IMG/VR virus record: IMGVR_UViG_2737471821_000004
DNA length: 27,699 bases
Reading direction: 5' to 3' (one strand)
DNA from: a virus
Taxonomy: Duplodnaviria > Heunggongvirae > Uroviricota > Caudoviricetes
Numbering within the stretch: position 1 is the stretch's first letter; every line of letters starts with the position of its first letter. Of the stretch, positions 1 to 7,328 are shown one piece after another. Both the position numbers and the translations under genes were made by a program. The notes under the pieces were generated by a model, which worked only from the letters and a program-made list of their open reading frames with translations, did not search any database and had not been told where the DNA came from.

Positions 1-129
1 CTATTTATCGGAAGGTTTATCTTGCTGCGGTTTGTTGTTGACCATATCGCACAACATAGAGAGCAGCATTAACCGTACTTTAAAGGGAGAATGACTAAAC
101 ACGCGCATACACCTCTTGAACTCATTCAT
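1..129 (-). CDS. Small hypothetical ORF (42 aa, MNEFKRCMRVFSHSPFKVRLMLLSMLCDMVNNKPQQDKPSDK) in the flank beyond the integrase end
   Basis: Minus-strand ATG at 127-129 with an AGGAGG Shine-Dalgarno 5 nt upstream; in-frame stop at 1-3. Below the ORF-track length cutoff. No family recognised. Confidence 0.25.
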   Translation of the reverse strand: MNEFKRCMRVFSHSPFKVRLMLLSMLCDMVNNKPQQDKPSDK

Positions 130-1338: not shown

Positions 1339-1920
1339 TTATTTTATCGTCAGAACAACGCGGCCTATGATTTTTATGTCGTCAATTCCGCAATCAAATG
1401 CCATACCAACACCGCTAACTCTGACTTTTCGTACCGGAATCCGTGTAAGAGTGCGGACGCTTGTTTTTCCTTCAACTTCAACCAACCAATCATCGTCATA
1501 AACTTCAGAATAAGACTGGTCAACAATGTACTGAACAAGGCCATCCAGAACACAAATCGGTTGTTGCGGTAAGGGCTTACCAGGCAGGAAGATGACTTTA
1601 TCAAGCATAAGTGTGCCAGCGTCATAGAGTTGGCCATCAACAATCTTGCTGCGCGGTATTTTGAGTATGTCTAATTCATCATCATTAAATTTACGTCCCT
1701 GTCCTGTCGCCAGCCACTCCAGATTAGCGCCTGTTTCGGCTACACATTTCACGACAATGTCTGCCGGGAAAACTCCACGCTTGTAGCGTGAAGAAAGAGA
1801 ACTGGCTGCCATGTCCAGATGTTCCGCGAGCTGTAACTTCTGCGTAAATCCGTAAGCCTCGATCACCCTGTCAAGAATCGGTGTGCTATCTACGTTTAGG
1901 TCGATTTTAAATGTGCTCAT
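1339..1920 (-). CDS. cI: CI-type immunity repressor (186 CI-like)
   Basis: ORF track gives 1339..1974; start trimmed to the ATG encoding MSTFKIDLNVDS. Strong resemblance to remembered 186 CI (AYGF.QK.QLA, ETGANL.WL.TG, C-terminal GIDDIK..GRVV). Transcribed towards int. Confidence 0.85.
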   Translation of the reverse strand: MSTFKIDLNVDSTPILDRVIEAYGFTQKLQLAEHLDMAASSLSSRYKRGVFPADIVVKCVAETGANLEWLATGQGRKFNDDELDILKIPRSKIVDGQLYDAGTLMLDKVIFLPGKPLPQQPICVLDGLVQYIVDQSYSEVYDDDWLVEVEGKTSVRTLTRIPVRKVRVSGVGMAFDCGIDDIKIIGRVVLTIK

Positions 1921-2055
1921 AGCGAATCCATAAGTCTCGATTCGAGAAATTAAAATTGACACTTCTCGAAACACGAATTAATCTGGCTCCATATTTCGAA
2001 TGTTGCCTTATATAACCCTGTATTGCCGTACAGGTTAACTTGTGGAGTTTGCCTC
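1921..2055. promoter_or_regulatory. Lysis-lysogeny switch region between divergent cI and cox/apl; candidate promoters and operators
   Basis: 135-bp non-coding gap. Palindrome TCTCGATTCGAGA (about 1934-1946) and repeated TTCTCGAA / TTTCGAA half-sites; TTGACA at about 1956-1961 with TAATCT 17 bp downstream (candidate rightward promoter); CTG-N10-CAG palindrome at 2018-2033. Confidence 0.5.
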
Positions 2056-2277
2056 ATGCGTCCGAACATTACAATCATCATCCCTGAGCCATACCTGCCT
2101 TTAGACGAGTATTGCCGCCGTACTGGTACCAACAAAGAAACCGCCAGGAACCTGATCGAATACGGGAAATTACCTATTAAGCCGAAGGGTAAGCAGAAGA
2201 AAGGCTTGGTCGAAGTCAACATGGCCGCGCTCACTATTCAGGCTTTAAGCGAATGTGACATTTCGCTTAACGCGTAA
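2056..2277 (+). CDS. Cox/Apl-like excisionase and transcriptional regulator (HTH)
   Basis: ORF track 2023..2277; likely start at ATG 2056 (MRPNITII..., GGAG 9 nt upstream). HTH segment LPLDEYCRRTGTNKETARNLIEYGKLPIK resembles the P2 Cox HTH; first gene rightward from the switch, as cox/apl. Confidence 0.65.
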   Translation: MRPNITIIIPEPYLPLDEYCRRTGTNKETARNLIEYGKLPIKPKGKQKKGLVEVNMAALTIQALSECDISLNA

Positions 2278-2307
2278 TCCATCCTACGGATTCGGGAGAG
2301 GCAAACA

Positions 2308-2811
2308 ATGTTTGATTACCAGACCTCTAAACATGCGCACTTTGATGCGGCTTGCCGAGCATTTGCAATTGAGCACAATCTTGAAGATGTGGCCGCTGCC
2401 GTTGGTATGAGGCCGCAGATCCTGCGCAACAAACTGAACCCAGCACAACCGCACCGCCTGACCTGTGATGAGCTTTTGGCTATCACGGATTACACCGAAG
2501 ATGCGCGTTTGCTTGATGGGATGTTAGGTCAGATTAACTGCCTTCCATCCGTGCCGGTGAACAATGCCACAGAAGGTAACATGCAGTTGTGCGCACTGAG
2601 TGCCACAGCCAGTGTGGGCGCGATTGCTGGGGAAGCCGTATCAACTGGCTATATGACTGCCGCCCGCCGTACTCAAATTCTGGATCGTGCCCGCGATGCA
2701 ATCCGTAGCTTATCCGTGCTGGCTTATACCGTTGAAAGCCGTATTCACTCTGCGCCTGTTCTGGCTGCGGCGGTGGAGCTGGTCACAACCAACGCCACCG
2801 GCCTGATGTGA
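2308..2811 (+). CDS. cII: CII-like transcriptional activator (186 CII family)
   Basis: 167 aa; MFDYQTSKHAHFDAACRAFA...LRNKLNP.QPH...TDYTED...CLPSVPVN closely follows the remembered 186 CII sequence; correct position after apl. Confidence 0.85.
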   Translation: MFDYQTSKHAHFDAACRAFAIEHNLEDVAAAVGMRPQILRNKLNPAQPHRLTCDELLAITDYTEDARLLDGMLGQINCLPSVPVNNATEGNMQLCALSATASVGAIAGEAVSTGYMTAARRTQILDRARDAIRSLSVLAYTVESRIHSAPVLAAAVELVTTNATGLM

Positions 2812-2820
2812 GGGAACACC

Positions 2821-2994
2821 ATGAAAGCGTTTGTCACTTACCTGAAAAAAGAATCACCAGCCATGCAGTTGCCGAGTGGTTCAACGGGCTGGATAGAACT
2901 GCCAAACGGTCAGCGCTGGAACCCTGGCCACATGTACAAATTCAATGGCCAGCAGCCGCGCCGCCCGTGGTGGCGTCGTCTGATGGGACTATAG
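2821..2994 (+). CDS. Small hypothetical protein (57 aa, MKAFVTYLKKESPAMQLPSGSTGWIELPNGQRWNPGHMYKFNGQQPRRPWWRRLMGL)
   Basis: ATG at 2821 with GAGGGA upstream, 10 nt after the cII stop; ends just before the RBS of the next gene. Too short for the ORF track, and competes with the 5' part of track ORF 2808..3431. Confidence 0.35.
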   Translation: MKAFVTYLKKESPAMQLPSGSTGWIELPNGQRWNPGHMYKFNGQQPRRPWWRRLMGL

Positions 2995-3002
2995 GGGGCG
3001 TT

Positions 3003-3431
3003 ATGGCGATTAGCCAGGAACAGCAAAAGCGCGGGCTGGAGCATTTAAAACAGATCCGCCGCAAATACTTCAACGAAAGCAGCGAGGCCGCTGAATGGTG
3101 GGACAACTTAACACCGGAGTGGCGCGGCGTGGTGCTTCATGCTGCTGCGGTTACTTCTGGTTCCGGGGCATTTAAAGCCCACTTAAGCAAATGTTGCTGG
3201 CGTGAGATTTATGAACGCCTGGGCTATCGGGACATGATTCAACTGCGCCAGGGCATTTCACGGGCGCGGTTAACGTTTGAAGGTTTCGGCAGTTTACGTG
3301 ACAGCGATTTTTCAAAGCGCACCGCGAACCGCCCGATCAAAAAGGCACATCCAATTTATAGCAGTAGTGGGGTACAGATGGTGATTGCACCTCATATCGT
3401 CCATAAGTTCCAGCAACAGGGGAATCACTAA
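3003..3431 (+). CDS. Hypothetical early-region protein (142 aa)
   Basis: Track ORF 2808..3431 trimmed to the internal ATG at 3003 (MAISQEQQ...) preceded by AGGGGG; stop overlaps the next start (TAATG). No family recognised. Confidence 0.5.
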   Translation: MAISQEQQKRGLEHLKQIRRKYFNESSEAAEWWDNLTPEWRGVVLHAAAVTSGSGAFKAHLSKCCWREIYERLGYRDMIQLRQGISRARLTFEGFGSLRDSDFSKRTANRPIKKAHPIYSSSGVQMVIAPHIVHKFQQQGNH

Positions 3432-3832
3432 TGACCATTATTTCCGTTGAGGGTAAATCGTTGGGGGCTGAACTGGCTGTGTGGGGTGTCCCGCATAACT
3501 ACGCTGTAGTGTTTACAGAGAAAAGCACCAGTAAAAATGGCCGCATCGCTTTGCATCCGTTCTTCTTCAATGACACCGAGCACATGACGAATCCGCGTCA
3601 CTGGCTGGCGATCAATGCCGCTTTCTGGTGCTGCGTGTATCGCGAAGCGGAAAGCAAAGAAGCCCAGATAGAAGCGCTGGCGGGGATTCGTGCGATTTTC
3701 TATACAGCCGGGGCGCTGGGAGTTGGCGAGATAAATGCACTGATCCAGGAGTGGTGGCGGACAACCTATGAACTGCACCTGATTCCGGTACCGAACTACT
3801 CAGCTGCCACAGTACACCCCACTTTTCACTAA
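3431..3832 (+). CDS. Hypothetical early-region protein (133 aa)
   Basis: ATG coupled to the upstream stop, RBS AGGGGA; protein-like composition; position equivalent to the fil/dhr/unknown-ORF stretch of 186. Confidence 0.55.
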   Translation: MTIISVEGKSLGAELAVWGVPHNYAVVFTEKSTSKNGRIALHPFFFNDTEHMTNPRHWLAINAAFWCCVYREAESKEAQIEALAGIRAIFYTAGALGVGEINALIQEWWRTTYELHLIPVPNYSAATVHPTFH

Positions 3833-3899
3833 TTAACCGCCTGAATTTTTTGGCCATGTTTCAAGTGGCCGGGGATTCTTTTGCCTTAAGGAAACCAAA

Positions 3900-4133
3900 A
3901 TGCATATGACACGTCAGGATTTACCCGCAACAAAATCAGTCACTGACCTGCTGGCAATGCTCACCAAAGCCACGCAGGAAGGTAAAGCCGCTGCTGCTGA
4001 TTTGTGTTCCACCCGTCTGAATAAGCTGGCCACCCATGCAGCCAATGAAGGTTTAAGCGCAACGGAAATCGTTGAGTTGATCCGCGAAGAAGCCGCGGCG
4101 ATTTGCAGCAAAGGCGGTGCGGCATGGCAATAA
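3900..4133 (+). CDS. Hypothetical small protein (77 aa, Ala-rich helical)
   Basis: ATG 3900 with AAGGAA RBS; 3' end overlaps the dam start by 10 nt (coupling). Confidence 0.45.
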   Translation: MHMTRQDLPATKSVTDLLAMLTKATQEGKAAAADLCSTRLNKLATHAANEGLSATEIVELIREEAAAICSKGGAAWQ

Positions 4134-4984
4134 AAACTCCGCTTAAATGGGTGGGCAGCAAAGCCCGCATTATGCCTATGCTGCGTCCGCACCTTCCAGA
4201 AGGTAAACGCCTGGTTGAACCGTTCGCAGGTTCCTGCGCTGTCATGATGAATACGGATTATGACGAGTATCTGATCGCAGATGTGAATCCTGATCTGGTT
4301 AATCTTTATAAGGCGATGGCGTATCACACTGATGCGCTGCTGAATGAGCTGGAGATCCTGTTTACTGCCGGTTCGTTAGGTGATGAAGAAAGCCGTGCCA
4401 TTTTCTATTACGCAGTGCGTGATGCTTTCAATCTTTCTGGTGGTAAGGCCGGTTCTGAATCTGTTGAAAATGCTGCGCGTTTCCTGTACCTGAATCGCCA
4501 CTGCTTCAATGGCCTGTGCCGGTATAATCGCCGAGGCCAGTTCAACGTCCCGTTCGGTAAGTACAAAAAGCCTTATTTTCCCGCTGATGAAATCCGTGCC
4601 TTTGCTGAAAAAGCGAAACGCGCAACGTTCATTACTGCCCACTATTCAGAAACGCTCGATTTGGTTCGGGACGGGAATGACGTTGTTTACTGTGATCCGC
4701 CTTATCTGACTGAAAGCGACAATTTCACCGCTTACCATGAGCGCGGTTTTTCGCACATGGATCAGGGGAGGCTGGCGCGTAAGTTGCGCCGTCTGGCCAG
4801 AAAAGGTGTGCCGGTTGTGGCCTCTAATGCCGATCTGGAAATGGTGCATTACCTGTACGCCGGATTTGAAGCCGTTCGCATTAATGCCCCACGTAGTGTT
4901 GGTGCCGCAGCTGCAAGCCAGAAAGTTGCCGCAGAGTTAATTCTGAAGTCGCCGCTTGGTTCTATAGCGATGGCCTGCGCATGA
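4124..4984 (+). CDS. dam: DNA adenine methyltransferase (Dam-like, GATC N6-adenine MTase)
   Basis: Track ORF 4103..4984 trimmed to MAIKTPLKWVGSKA. Motifs shared with E. coli Dam: LKW.G.K near the N-terminus, VEPF.G, FLYLNR..FNGLCRYN..G.FNVPFG.YKKPYFP, and catalytic VVYCDPPY. No adjacent restriction endonuclease. Confidence 0.9.
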   Translation: MAIKTPLKWVGSKARIMPMLRPHLPEGKRLVEPFAGSCAVMMNTDYDEYLIADVNPDLVNLYKAMAYHTDALLNELEILFTAGSLGDEESRAIFYYAVRDAFNLSGGKAGSESVENAARFLYLNRHCFNGLCRYNRRGQFNVPFGKYKKPYFPADEIRAFAEKAKRATFITAHYSETLDLVRDGNDVVYCDPPYLTESDNFTAYHERGFSHMDQGRLARKLRRLARKGVPVVASNADLEMVHYLYAGFEAVRINAPRSVGAAAASQKVAAELILKSPLGSIAMACA

Positions 4985-7079: not shown

Positions 7080-7099
7080 TACTGTATGTATATCCAGTT
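7080..7099 (+). promoter_or_regulatory. LexA (SOS) box-like site
   Basis: TACTGTATGTATATCCAGTT matches the E. coli LexA consensus TACTGTATATATATACAGTA at 17 of 20 positions, with CTG and CAG arms at the correct spacing; lies about 25-40 bp upstream of the ATG at 7122. Confidence 0.5.
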
Positions 7100-7121: not shown

Positions 7122-7328
7122 ATGGATCTTTTGGAGGCGTCGGCACAGCTGGAACGCATTGAGTTATTGGCCAAAATTGCCCATGTTTACGAAAGTAACC
7201 AGAGAGAAAAAACAATCGCTTTGGCCTGGATTGGAGAGCTTGCGGGAGAGGTTCGCGAAATAGTTAAAAAGGAAGGGCAACGCCCCCAGAATGGGGGCAT
7301 TTCAGGCGGCGGGAGTCGCTTTCAGTAG
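7122..7328 (+). CDS. Small hypothetical protein (68 aa) downstream of the SOS box; possible Tum-position antirepressor
   Basis: ATG 7122 with GGGGGC RBS; helical, protein-like sequence; occupies the post-A position where 186 carries LexA-controlled tum. No sequence similarity to Tum or DinI could be confirmed by eye. Confidence 0.4.
   Translation: MDLLEASAQLERIELLAKIAHVYESNQREKTIALAWIGELAGEVREIVKKEGQRPQNGGISGGGSRFQ
7282..7298 (-). terminator. GC-rich hairpin downstream of the ogr-like gene (candidate terminator)
   Basis: GCCCCC-AGAAT-GGGGGC perfect 6-bp stem just after the minus-strand stop at 7302; the T-tract on the minus strand is displaced about 10 nt, so only a weak intrinsic terminator. 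Confidence 0.3.

Follow-up and report, generated by a model that had tools for sequence, protein, structure and literature searches.

What do temperate phages of the P2/186 type encode between cII and dam, the interval in which phage 186 carries genes that interfere with its host? The question is raised by a 27,699-nucleotide (nt) stretch of DNA from a member of the Caudoviricetes (IMG/VR record IMGVR_UViG_2737471821_000004; hereafter the window), in which four small open reading frames (ORFs) occupy this place (Table 1). A preliminary description, made from the letters alone, recognised no motif in any of the four products, considered the genes to be translationally coupled and suggested roles in host takeover, superinfection exclusion or anti-defence. 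Our analysis indicates that the block is probably the conserved promoter-proximal part of a P2/186-type early lytic operon, consisting of a gene of the Fil family, a gene whose product is a probable distant relative of the replication protein B of P2 (ORF142), a further gene of narrow distribution (ORF133), a hairpin of the tR1 type and a gene for a DUF2732 protein (ORF77). The order in the window is cII-fil-ORF142-ORF133-hairpin-DUF2732, to be compared with cII-fil-dhr-tR1-orf79 (DUF2732) in 186 and cox-orf78-B-putative terminator-orf80 (DUF2732) in P2. The block thus falls within the known organisation of such operons, and its gene calls are already present in RefSeq.

The four ORFs are real genes under purifying selection. 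Measured against Salmonella phage S.Kent 1-2-1 (hereafter S.Kent), the ratio of non-synonymous to synonymous substitution rates (dN/dS) is 0.16 for fil, 0.09 for ORF142, 0.10 for ORF133 and 0.19 for ORF77. The same four coding sequences are called by RefSeq in Escherichia phage ESSI2_ev015 and by the Prokaryotic Genome Annotation Pipeline (PGAP) in the identical chromosomal sequence of Escherichia coli 1919D3, and relatives with no more than 45-53% identity in the ORF142 or ORF133 protein keep the gene order, with a 66-nt spacer. Together, selection, gene calls and recurring order argue that these are not chance ORFs, and the coordinates proposed for them in the preliminary description, including those of a gene of 57 amino acids (aa) missing from its ORF list, are confirmed. 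To find the latter gene, ORFs shorter than 60 aa must be admitted to the list; a GAGGG resembling a ribosome-binding site lies 7 nt before its ATG.

In its place the mechanical list offers a 207-aa ORF running from a GTG at 2808 to 3431, which overlaps fil in another frame. This is a chance over-extension of ORF142, whose ATG at 3003 shares a frame with that GTG, upstream across fil. The junction from cII to ORF142 was aligned in five phages and the upstream frame walked from the ORF142 ATG in each. It is open in the window and in its closest relative, ev015, as it would have to be if translation from 2808 produced a single 207-aa protein and the 57-aa ORF were not a gene, but these are the only two: going back from the ATG, a stop codon is reached after three codons in ev129 and after 14 in S.Kent. 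No 207-aa form occurs among 105 database homologues of ORF142, of which those of full length have 136-146 aa and the others, of 82-158 aa, are fragments or chimeras. The phrog_33841 profile covers only residues 77-204 of the longer form, and the GTG itself overlaps the cII stop codon. The Fil frame, moreover, encodes a conserved protein in phages as distant as Cronobacter phage ESSI-2, Yersinia phage vB_YenM_324 (YenM_324) and 186, and its dN/dS is low. A single product starting at 2808 is therefore hardly credible, and the 207-aa ORF was rejected as a gene. The preliminary description had rightly doubted it, but had explained it as a merger of two genes across frames; the ORF does span fil, yet what is extended is ORF142 in its own frame, fil being read in a different one.

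The same artefact is seen elsewhere in the list. The cI gene (1339-1974, minus strand) is begun at a GTG at 1974 to give 211 aa, against 193 aa from 1920 in PGAP, and the apl/cox gene (2023-2277, plus strand) at a TTG at 2023 to give 84 aa, against 73 aa from 2056.

By its profile matches, the 57-aa protein is a member of the Fil family. It scores 40.1 bits against PF10893 (Phage_186_Fil, formerly DUF2724; cutoff 25, E=3e-10), matches phrog_7623 (4.5e-30) and phrog_816, labelled 'cell division inhibitor' (3.3e-8), and is called 'phage filamentation protein Fil family protein' by PGAP. Like fil in P2/186-type early operons its gene is directly downstream of cII, and ev129, S.Kent, ESSI-2 and YenM_324 retain its reading frame. 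With 186 Fil the protein shares the N-terminal motif SP...GWIELPNGQRW.P and 39% identity over the first 33 residues. It differs in its length, 57 aa rather than 75, and in that the alignment is limited to the first 37 residues or so. The C-terminal tail, PRRPWWRRLMGL, resembles that of the Yersinia (YenM_324) and Cronobacter (ESSI-2) phage alleles, not that of 186; WW..LMGL is common to the window and YenM_324 proteins, and the latter matches 51 of the 56 positions of PF10893. The window and ev015 both have the 57-aa allele ending in PRRPWWRRLMGL, while ev129, otherwise 92-93% identical, and S.Kent have a 75-aa allele whose unrelated C-terminus overlaps the start of ORF142, so that the 3' end of fil (around 2935-3002) is a mosaic joint. 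According to the 186 record, overexpression of Fil leads to a block of cell division. The window accordingly holds the equivalent of the 186 fil/dhr segment, as had been proposed, and the proposal that host interference is encoded here gains support because the first gene is itself a fil homologue. Our search of the literature on Fil, Dhr, DUF2724 and DUF2732 found nothing functional.

The second gene, ORF142, belongs to a family (phrog_33841) found in prophages of Enterobacteriaceae and labelled hypothetical throughout. Scans with Pfam, NCBIfam and PADLOC and a sequence-profile search of the PDB gave no match. A lead came from YenM_324, where gp07, the gene between fil and an ORF133 homologue, carries the annotation 'replication protein GpB'. 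The ORF142 family matches the gp07 protein with an hhalign probability of 98.3% and the gp07 family with 99.05% (E 2e-18 over 113 columns). From there a chain of overlapping matches leads to P2. The gp07 protein matches phrog_33841 (1e-8), phrog_5349 (8e-6) and phrog_14551 (1.4e-5); P2 gpB matches phrog_14551 (1.2e-11), phrog_602 (1e-9) and phrog_5349 (1.7e-5); and gp08 of Vibrio phage PV94 matches phrog_5349 (4e-48), phrog_14551 (4.5e-10) and gpB's own family, phrog_235 (3e-4). No relatives of gp07 were found in a scan of genome contigs.

Profile-profile comparisons with hhalign extend these connections. The P2 gpB family matches two 103-aa Yersinia phage proteins, Yen31.17 gp10 (97.2%, E 3.6e-11) and Yen201.16 gp08 (97.4%, E 1.4e-11), as well as gp15 of Pseudoalteromonas phage C5a (93.2%, E 3.1e-7) and PV94 gp08 (74.6%, E 2.7e-5). 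A broadened gpB-unit profile was built from residues 1-100 of the P2 gpB family and the short one-unit proteins. It is matched by the gp07 family (92.4%, E 5e-7), by the ORF142 family combined with gp07 (76.9%, E 2e-5) and, much more weakly, by the ORF142 family alone (12%, E 0.0024), all three alignments being in one register, with ORF142 residues of about 25-97 against gpB residues of about 28-89. Controls with 20 unrelated early proteins and with reversed profiles scored 8-19, and no probability among them exceeded 1.6%. What P2 B (PF26815, phrog_235) and ORF142 would have in common, detectable via the intermediates, is a helical unit of some 55 residues with the motif [YW]-x-x-[LM]-x4-R-x-x-x-x-[FH]-[HA]-A...[WF]-[DE]-[DE]...G/A-I-x-x-L-R. 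Homology of this core of ORF142 to the gpB unit appears likely, and we hold it with good confidence.

The short proteins also shed light on P2 B itself (gene B, 2459-2959 of the P2 locus, about 166 aa). Its N-terminal half aligns with its C-terminal half with a probability of 85.7% (E 5.5e-6, 55 columns), which makes P2 B look like the product of a tandem duplication, with a unit of about 55 residues. The same unit occurs once in proteins of 103-144 aa encoded after cII or fil in Peduoviridae of Yersinia, Vibrio and Pseudoalteromonas. These alignments suggest that P2 B duplicates a unit present singly in ORF142 and in the short proteins.

The genomic context of ORF142 is also that of B, since it occupies the place that B has in the P2 early operon, ahead of the terminator and the DUF2732 gene. 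The gene order of YenM_324 is like that of the window, with fil followed by the ORF142 homologue gp07, the ORF133 homologue gp08, a DUF2732 gene and A, although there is no dam between the last two; its gp07 is shorter than ORF142, at 124 aa, and nearer to canonical gpB units. The C-terminal third of ORF142 (GFGSLRDSDFS..RTA..P...MVIAP) has no counterpart in P2 B and, unlike B, ORF142 is followed by an extra conserved gene, ORF133. The P2 record describes B as essential and required for lagging-strand synthesis. P2 B reportedly binds the E. coli helicase DnaB. Whether ORF142 is functionally equivalent, in the sense of engaging DnaB, is a serious possibility that we place slightly below an even chance.

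The slot may be read in another way. ORF142 and ORF133 occupy the very place that dhr takes in 186, flanked there by fil and tR1, and could be host-takeover proteins, dispensable for replication of the phage, that lower DNA replication in the host, for instance through sequestration of DnaB. Their neighbour fil is a host-interference gene, the dhr/B slot varies between phages, and a B-like binder of DnaB could starve the host replisome too. Dhr, however, is a protein of 66 aa (phrog_6069) to which neither ORF142 nor ORF133 has any similarity by BLASTP or hhalign, and the only detectable relatives of ORF142 lead to the essential P2 B. When the two proteins were compared directly, by the same programs, with all the remaining early proteins of P2, 186, PV94 and ev015, nothing rose above noise, and a search of the window turned up no further B, Dhr or related gene. 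Purifying selection on both genes is strong and they persist across genera, which fits a core function as well as it does takeover. We consider the takeover explanation of the pair rather unlikely. For ORF142 in particular, for which takeover or anti-defence had been suggested at the outset, its relatives and the lack of any PADLOC match make an accessory role in replication more likely.

ORF133 is more enigmatic. An exhaustive hidden Markov model search of 1.84 billion representative proteins yielded only 34 clusters, all of one small family; the named sources and phage records are from Enterobacterales, with distant members in Vibrio phages. Among them is YenM_324 gp08, a 'hypothetical protein' 49% identical to ORF133. 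The AlphaFold2 (AF2) model is confident (predicted local distance difference test score, pLDDT, 84; predicted template modelling score 0.82) and combines a small N-terminal part of alpha/beta type with three long helices. It nevertheless matched nothing in BFVD with E<0.2, a sequence-profile search of the PDB found nothing, and there were no matches in Pfam, NCBIfam or PADLOC scans. Nor is the protein similar to any of the other early proteins of P2, 186 or PV94.

Location provides the best clue. Throughout the group of the window and in YenM_324, ORF133 comes directly after the B-like gene, the stop codon of the one overlapping the start codon of the other; in PV94 one gene lies between the B-like gene and the ORF133 homologue. 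Our best guess, and a tentative one, is that it is an accessory acting with the B-like protein in replication. The notion that it supplies the missing second unit of B found no support: no hidden gpB unit was found in ORF133, and Yersinia phages with a 103-aa, one-unit B-like protein do without it. A narrow and patchily distributed family, early expression and a confident fold without known relatives, the last typical of many recently described anti-defence proteins, would also suit an anti-defence or superinfection-exclusion factor, with or without ORF142. Neither protein, however, matches PADLOC models or solved anti-defence structures, and we regard such a role as improbable. A bolder proposal, and in our view doubtful, is that ORF142 and ORF133 form an undescribed two-protein variant of the helicase-recruitment module of P2 B type, in which ORF133 would be a partner of new fold that takes the place of the second unit or connects ORF142 to DnaB or the A nickase, or else that ORF133 alone is a new early takeover or anti-defence effector with a fold not seen before.

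Between ORF133 and ORF77 is a spacer of 67 nt, and a length of 66-67 nt is constant in the window and its closer relatives. Within it lies a terminator-like hairpin whose stem arms, UUGGCCAU/GUGGCCGG, enclose a loop of 7 nt, GUUUCAA; GGAUUCUUUUG comes next. Seven relatives keep the stem and the 3' tail but vary freely in the loop, as expected if the hairpin is functional. Terminators are annotated at the same place in 186 (tR1) and, as putative, in P2, and we read the hairpin as the counterpart of tR1, which the 186 record describes as anti-terminated during lytic growth. Its presence bears on the translational coupling ascribed to the whole block. ORF142 and ORF133 would be coupled, their stop and start overlapping as TAATG (3429-3433), and ORF77 overlaps dam, but ORF133 and ORF77 are kept apart by the hairpin-bearing spacer and are not coupled, so that the four genes do not form one coupled string.

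ORF77 is the first gene past the hairpin, as are the DUF2732 genes of 186 and P2 past their terminators. The protein scores 44.5 bits against PF10809 (cutoff 25, E=1.5e-11), matches phrog_128 (2.3e-21) and is 33% identical to 186 orf79, for which the 186 record gives unknown function and non-essentiality. In its 77 aa and position it is like 186 orf79 and P2 orf80. Unlike them, its gene overlaps dam directly, without the zinc-finger, exonuclease and DUF5405 genes that follow DUF2732 there; stop and start share 10 nt, reading ATGGCAATAA, and dam begins at the ATG at 4124 rather than at the TTG at 4103 of the mechanical list. In ev015 and ev129 two extra genes, for a DNA polymerase exonuclease subunit and an RNA-binding protein, lie between DUF2732 and dam; the window has neither. 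The view that no product of the block has a recognisable motif does not, then, survive for the 57-aa and 77-aa proteins, each of which exceeds the gathering threshold of a Pfam family and is already named by PGAP; ORF133 alone is a true orphan.

Table 1. Positions in the window of the genes and other elements discussed, with the evidence for each
Feature	Coordinates	Strand	Evidence
mntS (host gene)	1-129	-	PGAP on identical E. coli sequence
cII-type lysogeny activator, gene directly upstream of the block	2308-2811	+	PF06892 Phage_CP76 E=1.8e-46; PGAP: phage regulatory CII family protein
Spurious N-terminal extension giving the 207-aa GTG ORF	2808-3002	+	Frame closed in relatives; homologue lengths
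fil homologue, 57 aa, short allele of the 186 Fil cell-division inhibitor family	2821-2994	+	PF10893, phrog_7623, phrog_816, PGAP
ORF142, 142 aa, probable one-unit divergent relative of P2 replication protein B	3003-3431	+	phrog_33841 6.8e-39; hhalign chain; operon slot
ORF133 (phrog_3935), 133 aa, conserved partner gene	3431-3832	+	Narrow Peduoviridae-only family
Terminator-like hairpin	3847-3885 (core 3850-3872, tail to about 3883)	+	Pattern scan; conservation in relatives
ORF77, 77 aa, DUF2732 protein, homologue of 186 orf79 and P2 orf80	3900-4133	+	PF10809, phrog_128
dam (D12-class N6-adenine methyltransferase)	4124-4984	+	PF02086 E=1e-65; PGAP same coordinates

A number of observations weigh against the interpretation of the block as a whole. 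The Fil match spans 34 of the 56 profile positions (1-34), and the C-terminus is unlike that of 186 Fil. Compared directly, the ORF142 and P2 gpB families give no significant match (hhalign 0.85%, E 0.065), and ORF142 does not match phrog_235, so that intermediates carry the case for homology. AF2 models ORF142 with only moderate confidence (pLDDT 72.7), and this model has no BFVD match with E<0.2, gpB included. Where P2 B has two units, ORF142 has a single one of gpB type, an insert of 11 residues and a C-terminal region that is unrelated. The absence of ORF133 from the Yersinia phages carrying the 103-aa protein means that it is not an obligatory partner of B-like proteins. Finally, the stem of the hairpin is short and includes G-U pairs, its U-run is interrupted and its folding energy is unremarkable (z = -0.54). 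With these points taken into account, assignment of the block to the conserved promoter-proximal part of the early lytic operon remains, in our judgement, probable.

The phage itself is a prophage of P2/186 type (Peduoviridae, Quadragintavirus-like), integrated adjoining mntS in E. coli. The first 12 kb of the window are 100% identical to a prophage in E. coli 1919D3 and in several other complete genomes, and at least 80% of this region is present in about 25 of 5,426 complete E. coli genomes. Over positions 2300-4200, nucleotide identity is 92-95% to Escherichia phages ESSI2_ev015, ev040 and ev129 (Peduoviridae, Quadragintavirus) and 83% to S.Kent. On the identical E. coli sequence the PGAP order is host mntS, integrase, CI repressor, a small apl/cox-like protein, a CII-family protein, a Fil family protein, two hypotheticals, DUF2732, DNA adenine methylase, replication endonuclease, ogr, portal and terminase. 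Since mntS ends at 129 and the integrase begins at 297, the attachment junction lies within about 130-296.

Further along, between the A gene and ogr, an ORF of 68 aa (7122-7328, plus strand) left unannotated by PGAP on the identical E. coli sequence matches phrog_698 (E=3.8e-22). It is preceded by a LexA-box-like sequence, TACTGTATGTATATCCAGTT, at 7080-7099, and residues 11-42 of 186 Tum match it weakly (E 0.019). It looks like an SOS-inducible antirepressor module of Tum type, at the position of p95-tum in 186.

A working model of the block can be built on its gene boundaries, purifying selection, family memberships, synteny and hairpin conservation, from which every biochemical activity in the model is predicted. 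Transcription would proceed rightward from the early promoter, reaching the block after apl/cox and cII. By homology with 186 Fil, the short Fil-family protein may block host cell division early in lytic growth. ORF142 would serve rolling-circle replication initiated by the A nickase, probably, like P2 B, through contact with the host helicase DnaB. ORF133, which travels with ORF142-type and other short B-like genes and whose translation would be coupled to that of ORF142, may be accessory to the B-like protein. The tR1-type hairpin could then attenuate transcription ahead of the downstream genes, which would supply the DUF2732 protein, non-essential in 186, followed by Dam and the replication nickase A.

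Nothing here overturns current understanding of P2/186 biology, and the value of the results lies mostly in annotation hygiene: a 60-aa cutoff for ORFs loses the 57-aa Fil gene, while the mechanical list inflates its neighbour into a false 207-aa protein. Beyond this, ORF133 is a compact, well-folded orphan restricted to Peduoviridae and a reasonable small target for functional work. The apparent duplication within P2 B could help to explain how small phage proteins that are not AAA+ proteins engage DnaB. Finally, the relationship of ORF142 to B would give a testable function to a hypothetical family of P2-like prophages in Escherichia, Salmonella, Citrobacter, Enterobacter, Klebsiella and Cronobacter.

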